Positions 29,708-51,385 are shown, counted from the first letter of the stretch. The stretch: DNA of 51,905 bases from a virus (IMGVR_UViG_3300017963_000332:1-51905); one strand, 5' to 3'. The notes: a model not told the origin generated them from the sequence alone. Program-made: numbers and translations.

Positions 29708-32700
29708 ATGGGATTAAATATAAGTCCTGCAACTGTACAACGGCTCAGAAATCTACAGCAGTCTGAAAAGTTCCAGACGTTTTCCCCAGAGACACAACAA
29801 CGTGTGAATGAGCTCAGCATGCAGTTTGACGATGAAGGTAACAAGAAGTTCATAACGCGTGAAGACAGATTTCTGGAGAACCCCAGCCTTACAAGTCTCG
29901 CTAAGACTGGACTGTTACAGGTGCCTATCCTAGGAAGCTCGCTCTCCGCTAAGACAGAACGCAACGTTAATCCGTTCGGTATTGCTGGAACTATTCAGTC
30001 AGGTATGGCTAACGTTCAGAAGAATATAGCAGAACGTCCTCCCGTCGAGATACGTGAGCCTGCCGGACCAGTCACGCCTATAACTCAGTTGACGACAGGG
30101 GCACGTGCTCTTGGAGCAAACCTTCTTGACAGTGCTAGTACCATTGTTCCTAGCTTCATGGAAGGAGCTTCTGCGCCACGTGGTGCGGTACAATCCCCGC
30201 TTGGTGTTGAGGCAATGAAGGAACGTGACATCTCCGAGTTCATGAGCCCTGAAGACTTACAAGATCTCCAAGAAGGTAAGGGTCTTCCTATACTTAAGGC
30301 AACCTTTAAATCAACAGCGAATGATCTGGCTGGGTTGATCAATGACGCAGCACTTGATGCTGGTATGAATGCTATGTGGTTTGGCACGGTACCTGCTATG
30401 CGTGCTGGTGCTGTTCGGTTCATGCACCTTCCCATTGGACAACAGTTGGCTAAGGCTGTTAAGGTTGTTGACGCGATCGCAAAGACTGAAGGACCGCTTA
30501 CAAAGGGATACGCGCAACGGTTCGTGTGGGAGATGAACAATAGCATGCGCAACATGGTGGCGCAAAGTCTTAAGAGCGGCTTGACACGTGCCGCGCAAAA
30601 AGGAACTGTCGTCGGTATTGATCCGAAGTATAAAGGATTCTTGTCTGATATATTCCCAGAGTACGCATCTATTGATGGAGTACCAATACAAATCGGTATG
30701 GGCGGAGCATCCGCCGGACAGCTCCCGTCTCCTATGGATGTCGCTCCACAAGCCCCGTTGCAAGGACCGATACAATCTCTTCAAGCAGCGTCGCAACCTG
30801 TTGGCGGTAAATTACCTCCGTTTGATGAGGTGGCTGCATCGCAGGCAATAGCGGCAATGGCAAACGAGCCCCCCGTCGGTGCTGGAACAGCAGCTCCGCT
30901 AGGTACGCCTGCAGCTCCTGTCGGCAAGACCGTTAAGAAGCCTATGATGAAACCCGTTCCTCCGGATCTTGGCATATCGCAGGAGACCTTCAATAAATTT
31001 GTAGACATTATGCAGGACGTTCCTCCTGAGCTTGTAGAGATGGTACACAGAGCTAGTAAAAAGTTGAACGAGCCTTTGAATAAAACGTTAGACACGCTTA
31101 TTGACATAGCCAAAAAAGACCTCGCAGATCCTAACTATAGCAAGAGCACGCCTAAAGAAGAGCTCCCGCAGATAATAAAAGAGCTCGAAAGCATAAAGAA
31201 GGCTAATGAATTGGTGACGCAAGAAACAGAAGGAGCGTCTAAAGATTTATTAACACAAATGAAGAGCGATATTGCGGAAATTGCTAAAGATTCAGGTAAG
31301 TCTGTTGGACAGGTGATAAACGATCTCATTGCTAAAGGAAAGTCTGACCTTACTAAAGTTCCTGATGGACTAAAACCGGGCGTGCAAAAAATACTGAACA
31401 ATCTTAAGCAGATTAATAAAGACTTACTTACAGGCAAACTTGCAGAGCAAGACCAGCTTAAAAGTAAAATAGCGGATATGGAAAAGGAAAAAATCATTCC
31501 GCAGTTTAAGAAGGGCATAAAAATAAATGCAAAAAAGCGAGGGACATCTTTTGAACAAGAAGTAGCACGTGCTAAACAGGCAGCTATAAAAAAGTATGGT
31601 GCGGATAGTGTAAAAGCTAAAAAAATATCGGAACTTTTAGATAGAGCAGTAGCAGAGCTTCAAGCAGAACAGAAGACACCGCTTGAAGAAGGCATGCAGA
31701 AGAGCAAACCAATGGCAGTCCCGGACGATATAATGGACCTCCCACAAGCTTTTGATGATTTAGGAGCTATGGATTTAGACGAGCTCAAGGGAACGCTAAA
31801 GGCGTTGCAGGACAGTAAAGCTCCGAGCGGTATGATCGACGCTGTTAAGAAGCTCATCGCTGAAAAATCTAAACCGATGACACCGCTTGAAGAAGGCATG
31901 CAGAAGAGCATGGAGCACGCTAAAAATATCCTTAAGGATTTGTCGCCAGAAGATTTACAAGATCTGAAGAAAGGTCCAACGTCTCCTGCTATGAAGAAAG
32001 CTATTGATGCGGAGCTCGCATCACGTAAGAATAGACCGCTGACGAAAGATGAGATAGAAAAAGCAAAGGGATTTGTTGAAGATTGGTTCAAGACATTTAA
32101 GCAAGACCTAAGCAAGAGTGCTAAAGCTAACAAGCGCTCCGTCAAACAAGAGATTGAGGCGCTCAAGAAAGATCTTCAAGGTCAAATTAAGAAGGGAGAG
32201 ATTGACGCGTTCCAAGCTAACGTGGCACGTCGCATGTTGCTCAAGCTTGAGGAACTTGAAGGATTGATCGCAAAACGCGAGGGCAAAAAATTACCCATTC
32301 CAAAAAAATCCAAGCCCAAGACTAGTACTAGTAAAGATACTATTATTAAAGGGGACAAGCCATTTAAGTTCTCAGACATGGCAGGGGAGAAAATACCACC
32401 AGATGAGCCGGGTGTTGTTAGCGATCCTAAAGTAATGAAAAGTGCCGCAGGATACTATGTAGGGACTGATTTTACACACCCAGACGGATTTGTGGAGCCC
32501 AATACACGTGACTCGGGTTACTTCAAAACAAAAGAAGCTGCTGAAAAACATTTGAAAGAAGCGTTTGGAGTACCCGCAGAACAGCCCAAAATATCTAAGA
32601 GCGATCTTATCCGGAGAGCAAAGAATGTTCTAGGACGTTTCAACAAACTTCCTGATGCTCTGAAAAATAAAAACAAGTTCATAGGTGAGACGTTACAAAC

Positions 32701-35700
32701 GCTACTTGATAAAGGTATTACTGACAAAGCAGACGCATTGGATATAATTGACACGCAGCTAAAACACGTTAACGCGCTCGAAGCTAAAGCAAAGAAGCCG
32801 TTTACGTTTGAGGGACTTACTGCGGAAGAGGCAGCCAAAGCTGAAGAAGTAGGGAAAACTATAGAAGAAATAAAGAAACAACTTCCAAAAACTACTCCTG
32901 AGACAGATGACCTTCTTCAGATAGGAGCTGATTTTGATTCAGCTGCATCTGATTTGAAAGCACTCAATGATGCTGAACTTGCTAAATTTATTGAGCTGAT
33001 GAAGAAAACAAAAAATCCGGAAGCTATTAATGCAGCTCTGAAAGAGCAGGCACGTCGTAAGAAAGTTCCTACTGCATTAGAAGAAGGTATCAAGAAACCA
33101 AAGAAGAAGTTCTCTCTTGCTGATCAAACTGAAGTTCCTGCGGAAGGATCCGGTAAATTCACGGTCACGAAAGATGGGAAACCGGTCGGAAGTCCACTCG
33201 CTACTCTTCAAGGAGCACAGTCTCAGGCGAACGCGCTTAACAAGCTTACCCCTGCGGATACGAAATACGAGGCACGTGAATTGACGAAAGAGGAGCTTGC
33301 CTCGAAGCAACAACAGGTTAAGAAACAAAAAGTTAAGAAGAAAAAAGCTGTTAAGGCTAAAAAAGAAAAGGTTCCTAAAAAAGCTGAGAAGACTCCTCTA
33401 GAAGAAGGCATTGAGAAAACTGTCGCTCCGCCAAGCAAAACTCCTGTCAGCTTGAGCCCTAAAGATGCCGATAAACTTCTAGGGAAAGAGGTCATTAAAG
33501 GTAAAAAGGTGACGCAAGGGGTTGTTGACGCGGTTAAGAACTTCCTTAAAGCTGAACGCAAGTCTAAGATGCTTACAAAAATGCTTGAGGGAGGTAAGAC
33601 GCTCGAGACTGAAGCGAAACGTAAGGCTATGCAAAACTCACAGCTCGCGTTGGAAGATCTACGTGACACGATAAAAGAAGAAATGGGCGTGAAGTCAGAT
33701 AACTTTGCGATCAAAGTTATTAACAAGATTCTGAATTATCTCCGTGATCTGCAGCCGGGTTTATCTATCTTTGACGTCGGAAAAAATAAGAAACCGATTG
33801 ACGTCGGTCCATTCTTTAAAAAGATGAGTAAGATGATCAGCAAGAAGACGCGTGCGTTGCGTATGAAGAAGTTCAAAGTGGCACGTGAGAAAGCGTTCTC
33901 GTTGATCCTTAAGGAGAACATCAAGGACATCGTAAAGTCCGCTAAGGACATGGGCATATCCGTTGAGGAGTTCATCCTTGCTAACAAGAGCGCCTTCCCT
34001 AATGCGCCACGGTCACTGGCAAGTCTGCAGAACGCGTTACGTCGCACATTTGTAGACGTCCCAGTTGACGTAAAGAACCTGTCCAAAAACGACATAGTTC
34101 AGTTCAAACCAGCTATAACAACGGCTGGTAAGAAAGCCGGTGACGTAGGCGTCGTTGAGGAAGTAGGTAAGACTATTAAAGTAAGGTTCAAGAACGGGAT
34201 AGCGGAGTATACCCCAGAAGAAGCTGCTAAGTTTTTACGTGAATCAGGGTCGGTGCTTAAGCTTAAGGACCTTCCTAGAAGAAAGCTCCCTAAAGTTGTA
34301 GCAGATATATTGGCGAAGAATCCAAAGCATCAGCAGCTTGCTGAGGTTGCTAATGCGGCTATTGAGGCTGCGCTTAAAGATCCTAAGAACCCTATTCTTC
34401 AGTTAGAAGCGACACAACTCACACAAAAATTAGTCCAAGCTTTGACTGAGAAGGTGATAGACGTCAATGATATTGCTTCCATAGCACGTGATCACGGACT
34501 CACGTCCGGGGAAATAATGCGAGAGCTCGTCGTCAGCCTACGAACTAAGTCAACAGAAGCTGGTGAAACACTAAACATTCTCTCTCAACTTCAGAAAAAA
34601 CTGAAGCGAATCCTTAGCCCCGAGGAGCTCTCGCAGTTATTCCCTGAAGGAGAACCTGTCAAACTAACCCCCAACAAGCGGTTCATGTATCGTGTCGGGA
34701 ACCATATAAATAAGACAGCTAACCTCTTCAAAGGGTTCCTTACCTCTCAATTCAAAACAGCAGCACGTAACGCATTTGTTCAGGGATCCGTGGCACTTGG
34801 CGAGTATATCAATCAACTTGCTATAACAGCATACCAAAAGATAAGCGGAACCGGAATACGTGGCAAAGAGTTCGCTGGAGTAGAGGCGTATAATGAAGCT
34901 GTGCAGGGAGCTCTTCATGATATTGTTTCTTTTGTGAGCAATCTTAGAAAGTTAAAGCTAGGAAGGGATAAGGAACGTGCGCTGCTGAAACTGCTCAACG
35001 AGTTTACTCTAGATAGGAAGAACTTGTTTGGTCAGCCGATACATGACGTTGTTGTTAACAAAGGTATCGTGAGGATCATTAACGCGGCGAACATCCTACA
35101 GGAGACAATGTACCGTACACTGTTTGTGGAAGCCGAGTTAGCTAAGTTCGCAAAGCAGCACGGTACATCATTGCAGGATATAAAGTTCTTTAGACAGCAC
35201 GCTGACATCGTGTCAGAGAAAGTGGAAATAGCTCTCAAGAACACGTTTGCAAGCAATCTGCAGAACTCTATATTCGCTGGCGACCTCATAAAATTCTTAC
35301 GTAAGTTCCCGGCTGTAGGCTTTATGGTTGGTAATCCTTTCTTAAGATTTATGTTCAATGCGTACGACATGATCATTCGTAAGAGCCCCATACCACTTAC
35401 CAATTTCTTGAGCCCAGAGTATCAGAGAAAGATTCAAGGTCCTAATAACGAAGAGCAAGTGAAGACATTGGTGAACGCTTTACAAGGCACGTTGTTCTTA
35501 GCAGCTGCTATGGCACTCAGGTCTGACAAGCTTGCTGGTCCGAAGTTCTATCAGATAGACGTTACCCCTTGGGACAAAACGGATGACAAGTTCTGGGACA
35601 CGCGTCCCTTTGCACCAATTCCTCAGTACCTATTTGCCGTCGAGCTAGCGAAGAACATGATGGGTAACAAGGAACAGACAACACTTACGTCCACTGACAT

Positions 35701-36511
35701 GATACAGGCAGTCGTTTCCATATCACGTCTTGCTGGTACGGGATTGGTTGGTCTAGACATGCTACGCGCAGAGCCATTTAAGGAGAAGCAATCGCCAGAG
35801 CAGTCAAGAAAACGGCTTAGCCGTATGGCGCTCAGCTTTGCTGGTCAGATACTTTCTGCTCCGACGGTACCGTTATCACAGTTCCAAGATATTATAGGCG
35901 CATTTGATCCTGCAGAGAACACATACAAGAGCACGCAAACGAATCCGCTCTTTGGTCCGTCGATAAATAACATCCCGTGGCTAAAGAGAATGCTTCCTGA
36001 TCTACAGCAGGTAGGAAGGTCTAAACCACAGCAACCTAGCAGGATGGAAGGGTTGGTAGAGTTCGGTACAGGGTTCCGTATCCAACGCGTTACGGAGTTC
36101 GAGCAGGTGCTTGCGAGACACGGGCTGAGCGGTGTTCGTCCGGGAACGGGAGACCCTGCGCTTGACCAACGTATCATTGGTGAGATGAACTCTGAAGAAG
36201 CGCAGAAAGTATTCCGAACATTGATCAACGATCCTCTGTTTAAGAATGAAACAGACCGTAAGGTAAAGAGAGACATGCTGGCTCAGTGGATGAGCACAGC
36301 ATTTAAAGAGGCTAAGGAAGGATTAATGGCGCTTGACCAAGAGTCGTCTGAGTTCTTAATTGAAAGGAAAATAGAACGTAAGATGACTGCGTTCAACAAG
36401 AAGTTTGCGGATAAGCTGATGGACATGACGCTTAAGTTGCTAGAGAAGAGGAAGGACACCACATTTAGTCGGGGAAAACAAAAGGTTCTTTCTCAGCCCA
36501 ATTTGAAGTAG
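29708..36511 (+). CDS. Giant (2267 aa) putative internal virion/ejection protein with a long Lys/Glu-rich helical middle
   Basis: Single uninterrupted ORF that ends the rightward arm. Carries repeated TPLEEG[MI] and SPEDLQDL motifs. Function inferred from size and position. Confidence 0.5.
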   Translation: MGLNISPATVQRLRNLQQSEKFQTFSPETQQRVNELSMQFDDEGNKKFITREDRFLENPSLTSLAKTGLLQVPILGSSLSAKTERNVNPFGIAGTIQSGMANVQKNIAERPPVEIREPAGPVTPITQLTTGARALGANLLDSASTIVPSFMEGASAPRGAVQSPLGVEAMKERDISEFMSPEDLQDLQEGKGLPILKATFKSTANDLAGLINDAALDAGMNAMWFGTVPAMRAGAVRFMHLPIGQQLAKAVKVVDAIAKTEGPLTKGYAQRFVWEMNNSMRNMVAQSLKSGLTRAAQKGTVVGIDPKYKGFLSDIFPEYASIDGVPIQIGMGGASAGQLPSPMDVAPQAPLQGPIQSLQAASQPVGGKLPPFDEVAASQAIAAMANEPPVGAGTAAPLGTPAAPVGKTVKKPMMKPVPPDLGISQETFNKFVDIMQDVPPELVEMVHRASKKLNEPLNKTLDTLIDIAKKDLADPNYSKSTPKEELPQIIKELESIKKANELVTQETEGASKDLLTQMKSDIAEIAKDSGKSVGQVINDLIAKGKSDLTKVPDGLKPGVQKILNNLKQINKDLLTGKLAEQDQLKSKIADMEKEKIIPQFKKGIKINAKKRGTSFEQEVARAKQAAIKKYGADSVKAKKISELLDRAVAELQAEQKTPLEEGMQKSKPMAVPDDIMDLPQAFDDLGAMDLDELKGTLKALQDSKAPSGMIDAVKKLIAEKSKPMTPLEEGMQKSMEHAKNILKDLSPEDLQDLKKGPTSPAMKKAIDAELASRKNRPLTKDEIEKAKGFVEDWFKTFKQDLSKSAKANKRSVKQEIEALKKDLQGQIKKGEIDAFQANVARRMLLKLEELEGLIAKREGKKLPIPKKSKPKTSTSKDTIIKGDKPFKFSDMAGEKIPPDEPGVVSDPKVMKSAAGYYVGTDFTHPDGFVEPNTRDSGYFKTKEAAEKHLKEAFGVPAEQPKISKSDLIRRAKNVLGRFNKLPDALKNKNKFIGETLQTLLDKGITDKADALDIIDTQLKHVNALEAKAKKPFTFEGLTAEEAAKAEEVGKTIEEIKKQLPKTTPETDDLLQIGADFDSAASDLKALNDAELAKFIELMKKTKNPEAINAALKEQARRKKVPTALEEGIKKPKKKFSLADQTEVPAEGSGKFTVTKDGKPVGSPLATLQGAQSQANALNKLTPADTKYEARELTKEELASKQQQVKKQKVKKKKAVKAKKEKVPKKAEKTPLEEGIEKTVAPPSKTPVSLSPKDADKLLGKEVIKGKKVTQGVVDAVKNFLKAERKSKMLTKMLEGGKTLETEAKRKAMQNSQLALEDLRDTIKEEMGVKSDNFAIKVINKILNYLRDLQPGLSIFDVGKNKKPIDVGPFFKKMSKMISKKTRALRMKKFKVAREKAFSLILKENIKDIVKSAKDMGISVEEFILANKSAFPNAPRSLASLQNALRRTFVDVPVDVKNLSKNDIVQFKPAITTAGKKAGDVGVVEEVGKTIKVRFKNGIAEYTPEEAAKFLRESGSVLKLKDLPRRKLPKVVADILAKNPKHQQLAEVANAAIEAALKDPKNPILQLEATQLTQKLVQALTEKVIDVNDIASIARDHGLTSGEIMRELVVSLRTKSTEAGETLNILSQLQKKLKRILSPEELSQLFPEGEPVKLTPNKRFMYRVGNHINKTANLFKGFLTSQFKTAARNAFVQGSVALGEYINQLAITAYQKISGTGIRGKEFAGVEAYNEAVQGALHDIVSFVSNLRKLKLGRDKERALLKLLNEFTLDRKNLFGQPIHDVVVNKGIVRIINAANILQETMYRTLFVEAELAKFAKQHGTSLQDIKFFRQHADIVSEKVEIALKNTFASNLQNSIFAGDLIKFLRKFPAVGFMVGNPFLRFMFNAYDMIIRKSPIPLTNFLSPEYQRKIQGPNNEEQVKTLVNALQGTLFLAAAMALRSDKLAGPKFYQIDVTPWDKTDDKFWDTRPFAPIPQYLFAVELAKNMMGNKEQTTLTSTDMIQAVVSISRLAGTGLVGLDMLRAEPFKEKQSPEQSRKRLSRMALSFAGQILSAPTVPLSQFQDIIGAFDPAENTYKSTQTNPLFGPSINNIPWLKRMLPDLQQVGRSKPQQPSRMEGLVEFGTGFRIQRVTEFEQVLARHGLSGVRPGTGDPALDQRIIGEMNSEEAQKVFRTLINDPLFKNETDRKVKRDMLAQWMSTAFKEAKEGLMALDQESSEFLIERKIERKMTAFNKKFADKLMDMTLKLLEKRKDTTFSRGKQKVLSQPNLK

Positions 36512-45345: not shown

Positions 45346-45549
45346 TTAGAGTTTATCTATGAATTGGTAGTCACATTTAGACGCGCCTATGCTTCTCATC
45401 AGCTTGCGCATGACCTTTAAGCAACTATTCTTCTGTGTGTACGTTTCGCTTGTTAGCAAAATCTTGTAGTTACGCGAACGTATGCGCCACCAAAAATAGA
45501 CTTTGTTGCGCGCATTTTTCGCACGGAACAGCTCGAAATGGTAGTCCAT
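45346..45549 (-). CDS. DUF1508 (YegP-like) domain protein (67 aa)
   Basis: ATG 45549 follows AGAAAGGACAAATC. FELFRAKNARNKVYFWWRIRSRNYKILLTSETYTQK matches the YegP repeat pattern. Confidence 0.55.
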   Translation of the reverse strand: MDYHFELFRAKNARNKVYFWWRIRSRNYKILLTSETYTQKNSCLKVMRKLMRSIGASKCDYQFIDKL

Positions 45550-45658
45550 GATTTGTCCTTTCTTGCCACGTGATAAAGTTTTCTTTTGCTTGTGATTTAC
45601 TTCGGGTTGGATTTTTGTGTGGGTGTGCATAAGTTCGTTATCCTTTTTGGTAGGATAT

Positions 45659-46345: not shown

Positions 46346-46897
46346 TTAACCCTTGCTACAAACAACTACACGGGTTTCTACGGTTTGTATATCACAAGTG
46401 TAAGCATCAGCACTCACACTCCTTATGAGACTTGCCACGTCTCCCTCTGCGTCAGTTAATCCTAACACGTTCGTCTTTTTACGCAAGTCGTTATCTGCAG
46501 GTGTGATATCCTTCTTTGTGCGTTGGAACTTCCCTGCACTCTTGCCATTACGTAAAGTGATATACCTAAACGTCACTTTACTAGGGTCAGCACCGATTGC
46601 CTTACATATAAGACGCGTGTTGCGCTTAATTGTTTCAGGCGTTGTTTGGTCAAACGTAATCGCGCCGCGAAAGTCTACTTCACGTTCGGAATACATTGAC
46701 ATACCTAATCGTTTCAGCTTATTAGGTATCGGCAAACGCTTTCTGTTAGAGTAATGATTGATGTCTAACTGCGCGCCAATGATTTCTACCTTCTTTGGTA
46801 ACGCGTCAAGCACCTCATTGACTAGCACACCATCAAGGCAGTACTGCGTTTTAGCTACTTCTTTCTTCGCCAACTTCTTTGTTCCCGTTTTTCCCAT
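46346..46897 (-). CDS. Hypothetical protein (183 aa)
   Basis: ATG follows AAGGAGGAAACAA. Confidence 0.6.
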   Translation of the reverse strand: MGKTGTKKLAKKEVAKTQYCLDGVLVNEVLDALPKKVEIIGAQLDINHYSNRKRLPIPNKLKRLGMSMYSEREVDFRGAITFDQTTPETIKRNTRLICKAIGADPSKVTFRYITLRNGKSAGKFQRTKKDITPADNDLRKKTNVLGLTDAEGDVASLIRSVSADAYTCDIQTVETRVVVCSKG

Positions 46898-47096
46898 TTG
46901 TTTCCTCCTTTTCTACGTACAACTCGGTTAGGTGCGCGACTGTGTGCTTTAACTGTACCTTCGTGCCACAATCGTCGCACTCGTGAATCGTGATTAAGTC
47001 TAGGTCGTTGCCTACGTCGATAATTGAGTGACAATCAGGACACTCTATCGACGACGTATCTACATACGTGTCTACATAAACCCATTGAACTCGCAT
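46851..47096 (-). CDS. Zinc-ribbon protein (81 aa)
   Basis: Contains CPDCHS...CDDCG. Confidence 0.5.
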   Translation of the reverse strand: MRVQWVYVDTYVDTSSIECPDCHSIIDVGNDLDLITIHECDDCGTKVQLKHTVAHLTELYVEKEETNGKNGNKEVGEERSS

Positions 47097-47177: not shown

Positions 47178-47393
47178 TTATACAACCCCTTTGGCACGTA
47201 ACAAACTTCTTGATACACGGCAAGGTCTAAACCAACCTAGTTCCCAACGTTTGACACTCATTAAACCAACGTCAAGCCAGTCAGCATATTCCTGACGTGT
47301 CATACCACGTTCACGTCTATCGTTGCGAACAGCCTCACGCCAGTTTATCTGTCTTGCTAGTTGTCGGTTTAGTGTTGATGTATTCCACGACAT
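47178..47393 (-). CDS. XRE-like helix-turn-helix regulator (71 aa)
   Basis: ATG follows AAAGGAGGAACGCG. The HTH segment is MTRQEYADWLDVGLMSVKRWELG. Confidence 0.6.
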   Translation of the reverse strand: MSWNTSTLNRQLARQINWREAVRNDRRERGMTRQEYADWLDVGLMSVKRWELGWFRPCRVSRSLLRAKGVV

Positions 47394-47574
47394 CGCGTTC
47401 CTCCTTTCCTGAAGTATCGACCACGTCGAACGAGAACACTTCTCCTTCCGTCGGGTCTAGGGTTTGGATAGAGTTCTTGAAGATACGCGTTGCTTCTTCT
47501 TCGCTAGACGCTTCAATGAACTCCTCATAATGCAAGTACTCCTCATAGTTAACGCGAAACAGCTTCACACTCAC
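47335..47574 (-). CDS. Small acidic protein (about 77-79 aa)
   Basis: GTG start. The second GTG at 47568 has better spacing from AGGAGG. Confidence 0.5.
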   Translation of the reverse strand: MSVKLFRVNYEEYLHYEEFIEASSEEEATRIFKNSIQTLDPTEGEVFSFDVVDTSGKEERDVVEYINTKPTTSKTDKLA

Positions 47575-48064
47575 CTCCTATGTTGTATTTACGCACGAGA
47601 AAGTCGCCCAAGTTATTCTCACGTTGTGCTGCGTAACGCGCGTAGGAACTCAATGGCTTTCGCCGTAGTACCTGTAATTTATCTTCCCACATATCTCCGT
47701 CTATCTGCGTGTCAATGTAGTAATGCTCATAGACAACATCATCAATGCTCTTACACGCAGCCCAACCACGCACATATCTGCGAACTTTGTTAGGCTTGTA
47801 CAACGCTGTTCCGTCGTGAAACGCCCTGAATATCCAATCAGGTACAGTGTCACGTTGCCACCTAGCTCTTCTTGACTGATACGCAACCATCTCATACCCG
47901 ATACAAGGTCTATTCCAGTACTGCTGGTCATCTGTATGAGGCTCGTACATACGCCCAAACGTAAGTTTACCTTGTGTCCTCGCCCAGTAACTAACGTGGG
48001 TTTGAGTAATGATACGTTTCTCTAACAAGTTTGCGTAACTAAAGTTTCCTCTGTTAGTCGGCAT
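47549..48064 (-). CDS. Hypothetical Trp/Tyr/Arg-rich protein (171 aa), last coupled gene after the JAB gene
   Basis: ATG follows GAAAGGAGGGTGGT. Overlaps the JAB gene end by 11 nt. Confidence 0.6.
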   Translation of the reverse strand: MPTNRGNFSYANLLEKRIITQTHVSYWARTQGKLTFGRMYEPHTDDQQYWNRPCIGYEMVAYQSRRARWQRDTVPDWIFRAFHDGTALYKPNKVRRYVRGWAACKSIDDVVYEHYYIDTQIDGDMWEDKLQVLRRKPLSSYARYAAQRENNLGDFLVRKYNIGGECEAVSR

Positions 48065-48728
48065 ACCACCCTCCTTTCTCTAGGTCAAACGCGTGCTTCT
48101 TACGTTTACCTTTGAAAGCACTTTCTACTAATCCACCCGTACAGAAGTTGCTGTTATGTCCGAAGTTGCTGTTATGTCCATAGCCACCAAAGTACTGGTA
48201 CGTTGTCTTCTCAATGTTCTTGACACCACGTACGTTCTCGACGGGTTGAATAACAGGCAAGTCACGTACTATATCAGCGTCGAGAAACTTAACCATACCA
48301 CACGGCAAAGTAGTTGCTCGCACACCTACAAAGTCACCATCATTGTTAACGACAATGTTGTTCTTTATAGGTGATGTGTTCGCGCAGTCGTGGTCAGTCG
48401 TGCTGAAGTATGCTTTCATACTTCCGTGTGAGTGAACGCCTATCACGATACCCATACTGCGTATCCGTTCTAGGTCAAAGCACTCGTTGTTCGTTACTGA
48501 AGCAGTTGATACCTCTTGCTTGGGTATGTAGTAGTCGTTTGCGTAGACCACGTTACCTTCGCGTTCCTCGCCTATGAGTAACATCTGCCACTCGCTCTGT
48601 ACATCTTCACAGAGCTTGTCAATAACGGCAAATATCTCGTCGGAGAGTATGAACGTAGCACGTGTATCTTCGCAGTAACTGCACTCATCTGCTTCGTCTA
48701 CCTTCTTGTTGTTAGACCAAGTAGTCAT
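48054..48728 (-). CDS. JAB/MPN (JAMM) metalloprotease (224 aa)
   Basis: Exact JAMM signature HSHGSMKAYFSTTD (H-x-H-x7-S-x2-D) with an upstream SEWQMLLIGEE glutamate. ATG 48728 sits 8 nt after AAGGAGG; the track start 48737 is a GTG inside the RBS. Confidence 0.8.
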   Translation of the reverse strand: MTTWSNNKKVDEADECSYCEDTRATFILSDEIFAVIDKLCEDVQSEWQMLLIGEEREGNVVYANDYYIPKQEVSTASVTNNECFDLERIRSMGIVIGVHSHGSMKAYFSTTDHDCANTSPIKNNIVVNNDGDFVGVRATTLPCGMVKFLDADIVRDLPVIQPVENVRGVKNIEKTTYQYFGGYGHNSNFGHNSNFCTGGLVESAFKGKRKKHAFDLEKGGWYAD

Positions 48729-48729
48729 A

Positions 48730-49443
48730 TTATGCACCTCCTTGCGTTAGTAATTGTTTGACGTCTACGTTCACGTCTTTAGCGCCTAGATACGCGCTGA
48801 ATATACCAAACCCTGCAGCGAGTGCAGAGCTTACTGCGTTAGCATTAGTTTGACGATATCCGGGTGTATACGTGTCAGGCAACTGCCACGTGTTCATATC
48901 AGGATAGCTACCCACCTTGAAGCCGTCGTAACCCATCTTCCTATACCTAATGCTTTGTACGTTCCTATCACAACGCATTTTAGCAACATACGCGCTTATC
49001 TTCTGCTGGATACGTGCGTCATCAGTTGTATCCCATACGTTAAGCGTGTATCTATCGGATGAGTAATAGTACGTCCTATTGTTCGCTGTCAGCTTGTTAG
49101 AAAACTCTCCAAGCAAGCCTAGCGTGTCTTCTGTTATGTGCGTTGTCATACACGTTACAATGGTGTCAGGTCGCATAGTTCTTATAAGCCTACGTAACGC
49201 GACTGCTTTGTTGATACCTATCCACGTTTGTGGAACTGGTAGACGTGACAGATTAGAAGCATCTATCTTATCCCCGTCCATAAGCACTAGGTAACGCGCT
49301 TGTATCATCACAAGCATAACGCCTAGCCAGAAGCCTATACCACCACACCCGATAATAATGTGTCGTTCGTGTTCTTGATTAAGTCCAAGCTCTTGCGCCA
49401 TCAACGCCTGTCGGCTCTCATCTACGAGTGTTATACGCTCCAT
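48730..49443 (-). CDS. ThiF/MoeB/E1-like adenylyltransferase (237 aa)
   Basis: HIIIGCGGIGFWLG Rossmann motif, LVLMDGDKIDASNLSRL, IGINKAVA and VWDTTDDARIQ match conserved blocks of the E1 adenylation domain. Confidence 0.8.
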   Translation of the reverse strand: MERITLVDESRQALMAQELGLNQEHERHIIIGCGGIGFWLGVMLVMIQARYLVLMDGDKIDASNLSRLPVPQTWIGINKAVALRRLIRTMRPDTIVTCMTTHITEDTLGLLGEFSNKLTANNRTYYYSSDRYTLNVWDTTDDARIQQKISAYVAKMRCDRNVQSIRYRKMGYDGFKVGSYPDMNTWQLPDTYTPGYRQTNANAVSSALAAGFGIFSAYLGAKDVNVDVKQLLTQGGA

Positions 49444-50204
49444 ACGTTATCACTCCTTTCATTTATGCTAATGATTTTATCACGCGTATACAAACTGCGT
49501 AATGGGTAATCCATATCTCCTATGTGTACTGTTTGATTAGCAGGACTCATAAGGTTTACCCTATTCATCTCACGTTCCAAGTCTTCATCTGACAAGCGCC
49601 AGAACGCTTCACCTGTGCTGTTACCTGTACACACATCACCACTACCAAATGTGTGAAACGTGCGAAACAACGGCGTAAACAGCTTCTTGGTACGTGAGCA
49701 GTAGCCTACCAGTAGAGGTATGCTGAAGGAAGGCTTGATGTTAACGTGTAGCGTGCCACGTGGCAATTCCATTACGTTATCAACCACTTCTCTGAAGTAC
49801 TCACGCACACCTTGAACTTGATTAGGCGAGTACGTGATAACGCGCAGTTCTAGGAAGTAGCCGTTGTGTTCCATAACAGGCTTACCGAACAAGCGTTGTG
49901 GTATTGTGATAGCGCCACGTCCGTCAAAGCTACGCACGTGTTCTATCTGTTTGTGCCAGTCCTCTTGCGCGTCACTTACAATGCCCTTGTTAAGCTGATC
50001 AACGTGTCGCGCGTGTCTTTGCTCGTACAACTCTTTAAGTTCTTCATTGATGTCAATGCTCTTTGCTTCAATGCGTTTGATCGCGTAATACGTGTCACCG
50101 ATACGCATTATGTCGGTGTTCACGTCATACATCTCGGATTTCACTTTATCTTTCACGTGCAAACCCCTTTCGTTAGCCCCTAGGCTGAAACCTGTACATA
50201 TCAT
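49431..50204 (-). CDS. Candidate E2 (UBC)-like protein (257 aa, or 241 aa from GTG 50156)
   Basis: LFTPLFRTFHTFGSGDVCTGNSTGEAFW resembles the UBC active-site loop (HPN..G.IC....W). Overlaps the E1-like gene by 13 nt. GTG 50156 has a GAAAGGGG RBS. Confidence 0.4.
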   Translation of the reverse strand: MICTGFSLGANERGLHVKDKVKSEMYDVNTDIMRIGDTYYAIKRIEAKSIDINEELKELYEQRHARHVDQLNKGIVSDAQEDWHKQIEHVRSFDGRGAITIPQRLFGKPVMEHNGYFLELRVITYSPNQVQGVREYFREVVDNVMELPRGTLHVNIKPSFSIPLLVGYCSRTKKLFTPLFRTFHTFGSGDVCTGNSTGEAFWRLSDEDLEREMNRVNLMSPANQTVHIGDMDYPLRSLYTRDKIISINERSDNVWSV

Positions 50205-50257
50205 ATCAGCTTTAGGCTACGCTTCGGTGAATAGCCTCGGTACGTAGGGTATGTGTT

Positions 50258-50713
50258 TTACCTGCAGTTAACTAACGCGTGTGCGTGTTCGTTCAGCACG
50301 AACCAAGTGTCCACACCAGCTTGGTCAAGTGCTGCACTTACGCGCAACGTGTTCAAGTTAACCTGATCAGGTAGGTCTTCCAGTTTACCCACAACGTTCC
50401 CGTTGTAGTACACCTTGAAGCTGTTACCTATGCCCTGCTCTTCGGCTTGACGTGCTATCCAAGCCCCTGCCTCTGCGCGAGAGACCGTGTTGTTACTGGG
50501 TAATGAACTTGTGTCAAATGTGTTCATTGTGTCACCCCTTTCTTGTGTTACGCTCCCAGCGTATCGCTGGTCACGTTGTGTGTTAACACACGTGTCACCA
50601 CCCTCTGTGATGACAATATCTTGCTTGTCAAACAGCTTGCCACAGTCAGTACACTCATACTGCGTGCCTGTATGGTCTAGCTCTAGGATAAAATGCTCAC
50701 ACGTATCACTCAT
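50258..50713 (-). CDS. Zinc-ribbon N-terminus plus candidate ubiquitin-like (beta-grasp) C-terminal half (151 aa)
   Basis: GGAGGTG RBS at 50713. Internal ATG 50527 has its own AGAAAGGGGTG RBS. FKVYYNGNVVGKLEDLPDQVNLNTLRVSAALDQAG resembles the ThiS/MoaD-like C-terminus and is followed by an 18-aa tail. Confidence 0.3.
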   Translation of the reverse strand: MSDTCEHFILELDHTGTQYECTDCGKLFDKQDIVITEGGDTCVNTQRDQRYAGSVTQERGDTMNTFDTSSLPSNNTVSRAEAGAWIARQAEEQGIGNSFKVYYNGNVVGKLEDLPDQVNLNTLRVSAALDQAGVDTWFVLNEHAHALVNCR

Positions 50714-50772
50714 CTACGATCACCTCCTCCCGTGATTTATTATATCTCTCTCCCTCCCGTATATATAAGGAA

Positions 50773-50805
50773 AGGCACTCACCTACACAACGTAGGCAAG
50801 TGCCT
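50773..50805 (-). terminator. Hairpin with a 14-bp stem, 5 nt after the stop of 50810..51001
   Basis: The minus-strand RNA AGGCACUUGCCUAC-GUUGU-GUAGGUGAGUGCCU forms the stem with two G-U pairs. UUUCCUUAUAUA follows. Confidence 0.45.
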
Positions 50806-50809
50806 CGTG

Positions 50810-51001
50810 TTAGCCACAATTAGCAAACGTGAACGTATCGGTCTTTAGTATACGTCGTTCTATCTCGGTACTGCGTAATGAAAACGCGTGGTCACGTGTA
50901 AAGCGAACAGCATCACGTATCTCGTTAAATCTAACCTCGTGATAATCGCCGTACTCGTCATAATGCGTGGAATATCTGACAACGATAACACTTTTGAACA
51001 T
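50810..51001 (-). CDS. Small early protein ending in Gly (63 aa)
   Basis: ATG follows GGGAGAAAATC. The C-terminus is ...TFTFANCG. Alternating beta/alpha/beta-like pattern. Confidence 0.5.
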   Translation of the reverse strand: MFKSVIVVRYSTHYDEYGDYHEVRFNEIRDAVRFTRDHAFSLRSTEIERRILKTDTFTFANCG

Positions 51002-51026
51002 GATTTTCTCCCACGTGTAGTAAGTT

Positions 51027-51066
51027 AAAAAAAAACAAGTGCAAGGTGGACTATGCCACCTTGCAC
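51027..51066 (-). terminator. Rho-independent terminator (minus strand)
   Basis: An 11-bp stem GTGCAAGGTGG/CCACCTTGCAC with a 6-nt loop, followed on the minus strand by UUG-U9. Lies 10 nt after the stop of 51077..51385. Confidence 0.75.
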
Positions 51067-51075
51067 GTGTTACGT
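51066..51075 (-). promoter_or_regulatory. ACGTAACACG box (site C, minus orientation, tandem with a second GTAACACG)
   Basis: Plus strand CACGTGTTACGTGTTACTG is CAGTAACACGTAACACGTG on the minus strand. Confidence 0.5.
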
Positions 51076-51076
51076 G

Positions 51077-51385
51077 TTACTGCCTCGGCTTTACGAACAT
51101 TGTTAGCGCCATACGTACGCGATGTAATACTTCGCCTTTCGCGTTTTTAATCGAGCCACGTGGAAACGTCAAAATCGCATATAGTTCTTTGCCTGACTTT
51201 GTACTGACGCCCTCATTGAGCAGTTCTTCGAGCTTCGCCACAATACTCGCGTCTATCATTGATAGGTCAAATGTGGCGCGTGTTCCGTTCTGCTCATCTT
51301 CGCGTGGGAAAGTATAATTATTGACCTTCGCCTCGCTTTTGGTGGCTGTTTCGGGTACAGCCGTCATCTGTGAAAGTTTTAACAT
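51077..51385 (-). CDS. First early protein of the leftward arm (102 aa)
   Basis: ATG 51385 follows GAAAGGGGTTTCTG. Lies between the promoter and a strong terminator. Confidence 0.6.
   Translation of the reverse strand: MLKLSQMTAVPETATKSEAKVNNYTFPREDEQNGTRATFDLSMIDASIVAKLEELLNEGVSTKSGKELYAILTFPRGSIKNAKGEVLHRVRMALTMFVKPRQ

Follow-up and report, generated by a model that had tools for sequence, protein, structure and literature searches.

We analyzed a viral DNA of 51,905 nucleotides (IMGVR_UViG_3300017963_000332, called the window when its full length is meant), in which four consecutive minus-strand genes at positions 48054-50713 (~2.6 kb) code, in this order, for a small protein, a protein of a family termed here His/Cys, an E1-like enzyme of the ThiF family, and a JAB/JAMM metallopeptidase. 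An earlier note on this DNA had proposed that the set is a phage-borne ubiquitin-like (Ubl) conjugation cassette, and the open reading frames (ORFs) and motifs on which it drew are all present where it had placed them. At 51.9 kb, the window represents all or nearly all of the genome of a tailed phage. Its plus arm codes for the large terminase, portal, major head protein, and baseplate/tail-fiber proteins, and its minus arm for a family-A DNA polymerase, an MCM-like P-loop protein, a DnaG-type primase, a Pam3 gp34-like protein, and an SNF2 helicase. The point at which the coding strand switches coincides with a flip of the GC skew, and the minus (early/replication) arm holds the cassette at its distal end; the earlier note had likewise placed it in the early arm, beside replication genes, and the gene content of the window agrees with this.

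The small-protein gene lies 53 nt upstream of the 257-aa ORF of the His/Cys protein, which overlaps the ThiF gene by 13 nt; 1 nt separates the ThiF stop codon from the JAB start codon, and the JAB gene overlaps by 11 nt an accessory gene, p171. These overlaps and gaps show that the 257-aa gene, ThiF, JAB, and p171 are translationally coupled in succession.

Table 1. Features of the cassette and its accessory genes in the window
Feature	Position	Strand	Remarks
Small-protein gene, long form, 151 aa	50258..50713	minus	N-terminal Zn-ribbon-like domain, linker, conserved module, tail
Conserved 70-aa putative modifier module, M63-A132, ending ...RVSAALDQA	50318..50527	minus	Own Shine-Dalgarno sequence AAAGGGGTGA and ATG 50527
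Variable tail at the C terminus, G133-R151 (19 aa), with the stop codon	50258..50317	minus	Predicted JAB-removed propeptide
His/Cys-family protein, 257-aa ORF, candidate Cys carrier	49431..50204	minus	H184 at 49653-49655, C192 at 49629-49631
E1-like ThiF-family adenylating enzyme, 237 aa, single adenylation domain	48730..49443	minus	Pfam ThiF
JAB/JAMM metallopeptidase, 224 aa from ATG 48728	48054..48728	minus	Pfam Prok-JAB
p171, lineage-specific accessory gene, coupled to JAB	47549..48064	minus	Kept in L001, L002, L003, L007, L010
p79, lineage-specific small accessory gene, RVNYEEYLHYEEFIEA motif	47335..47574	minus	Same lineages as p171

The small protein, which has an exact match in the databases (P0010), is preceded by a Shine-Dalgarno sequence (GGAGGAGGTGA) ahead of ATG 50713 and ends with ...LRVSAALDQAG followed by 18 further residues. 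Its N-terminal domain carries Cys and His residues (C4, H6 ... C20-x-x-C23), and this CxH...CxxC part was found in close relatives only, broad conservation being limited to residues 63-132. Both starts, M1 and M63, may be used, giving a Zn-ribbon-fused long form and a form consisting of the module. Some relatives of the small protein are annotated only as an 88-aa short form.

A profile search with the conserved module recovered a family of 136 proteins, in which the stretch between Met and the terminal Ala has a median of 66 aa. The conserved region was closed by [D/N/E][Q/N]-Ala in all 120 members examined (DQA in 92, DNA in 20, NQA in 5, NNA in 2, and ENA in 1), and what follows the Ala is variable: nothing in 60 members, 1 to 3 aa in 32, and unrelated tails of 4 to 26 aa in 27, the longer ones being of a hydrophobic WF type or Lys rich. 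In the loci examined, a JAB gene is always linked to a modifier gene whose C terminus is either mature or extended. The combination of an invariant end with mature or variably extended forms points to a modifier with a reactive C-terminal carboxylate, the precursors of which are trimmed, and, as far as the sequences tell, it is what would be expected of a modifier that is activated at its C terminus after trimming by a protease, a pattern typical of Ubls. The C terminus thus appears to be the business end of the protein at the head of the operon. The earlier note had named the 151-aa protein as a candidate Ubl in which JAB could expose a Gly; the C-terminally reactive modifier stands, but it is confined to the 70-aa module, and the family terminus is Ala132, Gly133 being merely the first residue of the tail. 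Cleavage after DQAG, which would expose Gly, was accordingly dropped as a candidate in favor of cleavage after Ala132, where the family end motif lies. The Lys-rich tails behind the terminal Ala, such as AKKPAKGKSKKSCR, were observed in P0211-P0214, P0220, P0234, and P0242, and might serve as self-conjugation sites or as nucleic-acid-binding tails.

An AlphaFold2 model of the 151-aa protein, built with 106 sequences, gave a predicted local distance difference test score (pLDDT) of 83-94 over residues 71-130, where the successive elements are beta(76-78), alpha(79-92), beta(99-103), beta(106-108), 3(10), beta(117-119), beta(123-127). A free five-residue ALDQA tail follows the last strand, and the extension beyond it has a pLDDT of <50; at the other end, residues 10-29 form three strands (pLDDT ~84). 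About 20 of the top 50 Foldseek matches of the model were TFIIB/RPA12-type Zn ribbons, which matched the N-terminal domain, and 16 were Ub, Ubl, MoaD, ThiS, UBX, or SUMO-like proteins (E 1.3-4.7; TM-score normalized to the target, 0.29-0.40), none of them significant. We take this to suggest a beta-grasp-like domain of minimal size, the first strand of which is reduced. The beta-grasp fold named in the earlier note is thus suggested by an enrichment among weak fold matches, none of which reaches significance.

The JAB ORF spans 48054-48737 if a GTG is taken as its start; the actual start codon, as in the earlier note, is the ATG at 48728, which lies behind AAGGAGGTG embedded in the last ThiF codons. 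The protein contains ...EWQ...HSHGSMKAYFSTTD, and its JAMM site (E49, H102-x-H104-x7-S112-x-x-D115 in the numbering of a 227-aa form; motif DNA, 48393-48434) is complete. Thus, the exact JAMM signature with an upstream Glu that had been read from the sequence is a full and conserved zinc site: E...HxHx7SxxD is intact in nine of nine loci scanned. The Pfam Prok-JAB match (PF14464) is borderline (E 1.3e-5), its 25.5 bits lying just over the cut-off of 25, and the sole NCBIfam match, PRTRC_A, is far below its cut-off. The JAMM residues are also intact in L010, L017, and L018, where the modifier already ends at Ala. The retention of the site where the modifier is encoded in mature form argues for a task of the peptidase beyond maturation, namely, deconjugation, and JAB probably acts on conjugates as well.

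The ThiF ORF carries the motifs GCGGIG, DGDKIDASNLSRL, IGINK, and DTTDD, and was matched by Pfam ThiF (PF00899) with E 1.1e-12, its 48.1 bits exceeding the cut-off of 28.1. PADLOC models of Cap2 E1-E2 proteins matched it down to E 1.2e-9, Cap2 being among the best matches, and NCBIfam gave ThiF and 6A-MBL cap2_3 models, all below cut-offs and over the nucleotide-binding half only. Pfam, PADLOC, and NCBIfam profiles thus agree with the E1/ThiF adenylating enzyme of the earlier note. An alignment of the enzyme from six phages keeps GCGGIG, DGDxIDxSNLxRL, NKAVALR, WDTTDDA, YRKxGYxGF, and GYRxxxANA; in the same alignment no conserved Cys was found outside the GCGGIG loop, and the crossover region, where the catalytic Cys is expected, has a conserved Y-x-x-G-Y-R. 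Besides, the C-terminal peptide ...GRFA of Enterobacter cloacae CdnD has been crystallized as an AMP conjugate in Cap2, which makes an Ala terminus compatible with this class of E1.

The best NCBIfam matches of E1 were ThiS adenylyltransferases (E 1.4e-11), a result that would suit a sulfur-carrier pathway. There, JAB would trim a ThiS/MoaD/CysO-like carrier (as QbsD and Mec+ do), E1 would adenylate it, and a persulfide supplied by the Cys of the 257-aa protein would convert it into a thiocarboxylate for thio-modification of a nucleotide, tRNA, or cofactor. Operons combining JAB, E1, and a small carrier for sulfur transfer are on record (Iyer et al. 2006), MoaD and ThiS are among the weak fold matches of the module, and the lack of a catalytic Cys is possible in simple enzymes of the ThiF/MoeB type. 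However, the ThiF scores are far under the NCBIfam cut-offs (44 bits against 159) and stem from the nucleotide-binding half, the end of the module is of the Gln-Ala type throughout and not Gly-Gly, and no rhodanese, cysteine desulfurase, PP-loop protein, or thiazole/molybdopterin synthase was found in the window or related loci. Furthermore, the Lys-rich and hydrophobic tails, and a JAB that is kept where no trimming is needed, fit conjugation better, and we regard a sulfur-carrier pathway as unlikely.

The nearest sequence relatives of E1 in the PDB are UBA5, MccB (E 4.6e-5), Cap2 (7tsq/7tsx), and TcdA, with E values of about 1e-5 to 1e-4, and on its sequence the enzyme cannot be placed in a subfamily. 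Its relatives on plasmids, a CBASS Cap2 and an MccB-like enzyme, were equally distant and were set aside; one plasmid relative lies in a cluster resembling those for ribosomally synthesized and post-translationally modified peptides (RiPPs). The rank of MccB and this RiPP-like cluster would accord with a ligation like that by MccB or PaaA, in which the E1-activated Ala is joined to a nucleotide or metabolite or is cyclized, the 257-aa protein acting as a tailoring enzyme and JAB as a leader or tail peptidase. We consider this very unlikely, since E1 is devoid of the N-terminal peptide-clamp domain of the MccB type, the substrate would be a folded 66-aa domain and not a short peptide, family scans of the window and related loci found no transporter or immunity genes, and the cassette is confined to phages, in an early operon.

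The His/Cys ORF, which contains LFTPLFRTFHTFGSGDVCTG...FW, probably starts at GTG 50156 behind AAAGGGG, giving a form of 241 aa, the same length as the database protein P0001. Nine close homologues were found, and an exhaustive profile search extended the family to 122 representative clusters, nearly all of 235 to 300 aa. In 103 sequences no variation was seen at H184, C192, S220, or W255, and very little at P127, G194, or N217; the family motif is TFHTxxxxxxCTG...FW...NxINxFSxA, and the H184-x7-C192 spacing is likewise invariant in these sequences and varies from 6 to 8 residues in distant members. The family thus has an arrangement of an upstream His and a Cys that resembles, at the level of the motif, that of the catalytic site of E2 enzymes. 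The 257-aa protein itself had no match in Pfam, PADLOC, NCBIfam, or PHROG. Its gene is always the second of the cassette, and the occurrence of an invariant His/Cys protein between the modifier and a Cys-less E1 makes it the obvious candidate for a thioester carrier in the role of an E2.

The order of small protein, His/Cys protein, ThiF, and JAB was the same in all 12 loci examined, which were drawn from ENA, JGI, Logan, NCBI, and IMG/VR assemblies. The related loci are phage contigs of 41 to 53 kb, several of them with the same SU10-type portal and divergent early and late arms. Across the syntenic loci, identity is as low as ~40% in the module and ~25% in the His/Cys protein, and in the most distant loci membership in the second-gene family is backed by hidden Markov model (HMM) scores. 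When 185,579 bacterial and archaeal species, each represented by one genome, were scanned for the pattern, only one cassette locus was returned, on a 41-kb phage-like contig binned into a Woesearchaeota metagenome-assembled genome (MAG). This lone phage-like locus among so many species indicates that the cassette is essentially phage specific. The contig (L010/L015; GCA_964633605.1, CAZWGF010000001.1) carries an SU10-type portal, an SNF2 helicase, and the cassette, and is deposited as a Candidatus Woesearchaeota archaeon MAG; this placement probably reflects an error in binning, or it may instead point to the host. Among 50,697 deposited phages the cassette region (47500-51100) had no nucleotide-level relative, cultured phages gave no megablast or tblastn match for the region or the 257-aa protein, and a search of them with E1 returned only a crAss-like ThiF (40% identity over 24% of the length). 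Full-text searches of a literature library yielded no description of a phage-encoded E1/JAB/modifier cassette, in line with the earlier note, which knew of no such system having been characterized.

What lies at the locus is therefore a translationally coupled gene set, phage only in its distribution and syntenic throughout, with intact catalytic motifs and a modifier-type C-terminal signature. With modest confidence, we favor the reading that it encodes a pathway for Ubl-like C-terminal activation and conjugation, with four core genes in one early operon and a noncanonical Cys carrier. The modifier would be a module of ~66 to 70 aa with a 19-residue tail, possibly also occurring as the longer Zn-ribbon fusion, with the invariant end ...L-D-Q-Ala. 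The JAMM peptidase would trim the residues past Ala132, and probably would reverse conjugates too. E1, as a small enzyme of the homodimer type, would then adenylate the exposed Ala carboxylate; the lack of a conserved Cys outside its GCGGIG loop implies that an E1~thioester is probably not formed. Instead, Cys192 of the 257-aa protein, helped by His184, would take over the modifier as a thioester, filling the E2 role with no detectable UBC (ubiquitin-conjugating fold) ancestry, and would pass it to an amine on a phage or host target early in infection. The resulting conjugates could serve host takeover, modification of phage proteins, or counter-defense.

Several results weigh against this reading. 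With regard to the modifier, the C-terminal Gly (Gly-Gly) of the Ub, ThiS, MoaD, Urm1, and BilA modifiers was present in none of the 120 members, and the module had no Pfam or PDB sequence match, even with a 96-member profile, and no link to ThiS, MoaD, or ubiquitin. Foldseek returned no significant beta-grasp match for the small protein (best E 0.6), and the canonical first beta-strand of that fold was not predicted in the model. The only case of a modifier joined to the second gene, the fusion protein P0005, may be an assembly artifact; it had been considered as a Ubl-E2 precursor and was downgraded, a frameshift lying a few codons away on a contig with 2x coverage. On this contig, L001 (1774-1805), the small gene has a 1-nt frameshift, and MWNATN is encoded in another frame behind AAAGGGGG, a strong Shine-Dalgarno sequence.

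With regard to the second protein, none of the 103 relatives matched Pfam, and the family profile found no PDB sequence. The AlphaFold2 model of the 257-aa protein, from a nine-sequence alignment, had a mean pLDDT of 69 and a predicted TM-score of 0.52, core residues 101-250 being mostly at 70-90, and a Foldseek search with this moderate model gave no match, the best E being 0.93 in the PDB and 0.11 in BFVD. Comparison by hhalign with three canonical E2s (UBE2D2 being verified against 1ur6) gave a single 17-column match with a probability of 0.45% and E 0.13, in which H184 falls on the His of HPN and C192 on the catalytic Cys, a placement that agrees with the active-site Cys proposed in the earlier note and would by itself favor the E2 role; comparison with a Cap2 gave nothing relevant. 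PADLOC E2 models matched 2 of the 103 members no more strongly than did Cas13a, PD-T4-6, and SP_VI models, i.e., at noise level. The likeness to a UBC catalytic loop that the earlier note had seen in this protein thus finds no backing in HMM searches (E2 profiles PF00179, Prok-E2_A to E, and PADLOC E2), in profile-profile comparison, or in fold searches, the last of these with a moderate model, and the UBC claim stands as a resemblance of motifs only.

The location of the cassette in the early arm, where anti-defense genes cluster, is also what would be expected of interference with host defense, in which JAB would remove the Ubl or cGAS conjugates of the host's Bil or type II CBASS systems, and the small protein with E1 would act as a decoy or sink for enzymes of the Cap2 type. 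E1 resembles Cap2, and the Ala terminus of the modifier resembles that of CdnD. In a related phage (the P0242 contig, ENA ERZ1426852), the early arm that holds the cassette also carries, ~4 kb downstream of it, a gene with an Acb2/Tad1 hairpin domain and, next to this gene, one for a Band_7 protein; the Acb2/Tad1 hairpin domain marks the anti-CBASS/anti-Thoeris sponge family, and its presence hints weakly at a counter-defense neighborhood. Besides, where the function of such systems in hosts is known, it is antiphage. On the other hand, a deconjugase alone would suffice for such a purpose, whereas four coupled genes with intact catalytic residues, including those for an ATP-dependent E1 and an invariant-Cys protein, are co-inherited in every lineage, and JAB shows no significant homology to Cap3 or BilC. 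Interference of this type therefore seems rather unlikely to us.

The genes around the core set are less constant. In the lineage of the window, JAB is followed by p171 and p79 (31-66% identity), p171 being retained at 31-60% identity by tblastn in its five loci. No match for p171 was found in Pfam, PHROG, PADLOC, or NCBIfam-type family scans, nor was the gene found in L016-L018; the only family match of p79 was a weak PHROG of unknown function. In L016-L018 other small proteins take the place of p171 and p79, as does, in L016 and L018, a ParB-N-like protein. These ParB-N-like proteins (mutual E 4e-64), encoded just downstream of the cassette (L016, 8191-8931; L018, 8088-8879), recall the PRTRC cassettes of plasmids. 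In L017 (5754-6803), metallophosphatase and radical-SAM/SPASM genes were observed ~1.5 to 2.5 kb downstream.

Upstream of the small-protein gene, a 63-aa ORF at 50810-51001 ends in FANCG and had been named as an alternative Ubl. We rejected this candidate: it is kept in the closest relatives L003-L006 only, is absent from L001, L002, L007, and L010, and has no family match, which places it outside the system. Between this ORF and the small-protein gene lies an imperfect inverted repeat, AGGCACTTGCCTAC...GTAGGTGAGTGCCT (window 50774-50806, minus strand), behind which comes A/T-rich sequence with a box resembling TATAAT that was not called by the consensus scanner; together they may mark the start of the cassette transcription unit. 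Further upstream there is a stem-loop with a T-run at 51066-51039. Two other early genes on the minus strand of the window gave domain matches: the product of 45346-45630 to DUF1508 (E 2e-5), and the 81-aa product of 46851-47096 to a LysW-like Zn ribbon (E 1e-4). In the structural arm, a 2,267-aa ORF (29708-36511, plus strand) had no Pfam or other family match and possibly encodes a giant internal or virion protein.

The bacterial E1/E2/JAB/Ubl systems of known function, type II CBASS as well as Bil, serve as host defenses against phages, and Bub has been inferred to be antiphage from its genomic context. If the conjugation reading is correct, a conserved, phage-only version in an early operon would reverse this picture: bacterial viruses would use ubiquitin-style tagging themselves, as eukaryotic viruses exploit ubiquitin. 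In its fullest form, which we put forward as a tentative and still doubtful possibility, phages would run tagging of their own with an Ala-terminated mini-modifier of ~66 residues, a Cys-less E1, and a carrier of an unseen fold that arrived at E2 chemistry (His/Cys) independently of UBC; early in infection the tag would be placed on proteins of the host or the phage, and JAB would take it off again. The cassette would then be a viral counterpart, possibly a counter-weapon, to host Bil, CBASS, and Bub. In any event, two new and directly testable families emerge, i.e., a minimal Ala-terminated modifier and the His/Cys protein, perhaps a non-UBC solution to the E2 step, and both bear on the origin of the E1-E2 relay and on the minimum size of a Ubl. 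The compact cassette should be easy to reconstitute.

Bacterial operons of types 6a to 6e have been described that combine E1-like, E2-like, JAB, and Ubl proteins (Iyer et al. 2006). The Bil system (BilA Ubl, BilB E2, BilC JAB, and BilD E1) is likewise a four-gene set that combines a small modifier with a Cys carrier, a JAB, and an E1, and JAB matures or deconjugates the modifier in Bil, as it is predicted to do here. However, Bil is host encoded and antiphage, with a tandem-domain, Cys-bearing E1, whereas the cassette is phage borne, with a single-domain enzyme; BilB is an E2 of the UBC fold, whereas the His/Cys protein gives no UBC signal; and the Bil modifier terminates in Gly, that of the cassette in Ala. 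The likeness to type II CBASS lies in the matches of E1 to Cap2 models, the activation of a C-terminal Ala by Cap2 (as in CdnD), and the presence of a JAB antagonist (Cap3) in both. Nevertheless, Cap2 is an E1-E2 fusion, whereas E1 and the Cys protein of the cassette are encoded by separate genes, and the CBASS substrate is the tail of an enzyme of the system itself, whereas here it would be a dedicated, phage-encoded mini-protein. As the earlier note had remarked, no cyclase or effector is nearby; neither a CD-NTase cyclase nor an effector was found in the flanking ORFs of the window or related loci, so the cassette is not a CBASS.

In Bub (6E/DUF6527) operons, E1 has no catalytic Cys, JAB cleaves a Ubl-containing precursor to expose the C terminus of the modifier, and E2 is noncanonical; they thus provide a precedent for a Cys-less E1 and for JAB maturation of a Ubl precursor, features that the cassette appears to share. 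They differ in using Tyr/Ser oxyesters and a DUF6527 Ser protease, whereas the cassette has an invariant-Cys carrier and neither DUF6527 nor a Ser-E2, and the Bub Ubl has multiple beta-grasp domains and a Gly end, whereas the cassette modifier is Ala terminated. The 6D-type and PRTRC (ParB-related, ThiF-related) sets of plasmids and integrative and conjugative elements are also mobile-element combinations of ThiF, JAB, and small proteins, and a ParB-N-like gene stands just downstream of the cassette in two distant phage lineages. Membership in PRTRC (TIGR03734-03742) was rejected, PRTRC_A scoring 14.8-19.8 bits against 101.8 and PRTRC_ThiF 12.3 against 144.75, with no match to the B to F models; furthermore, the 6D E2 has its His downstream of the Cys, whereas that of the His/Cys protein is upstream. 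The phage Ubl/JAB pairing noted by Iyer et al. (2006) was that of the tail-assembly proteins TAPI and TAPK only. The lambda/T1 pair of TAPI (Ubl) and TAPK (JAB plus NlpC/P60) shares this pairing with the cassette but belongs to the tail-assembly module, with neither an E1 nor a Cys carrier, whereas the cassette lies in the early/replication arm with an E1. Thus, to judge from the sequences compared, the cassette shares the logic of Bil, CBASS, and Bub yet fails to fall within any of them, and it appears to be a phage-restricted variant of the prokaryotic Ubl-type pathways with two previously undescribed protein families.

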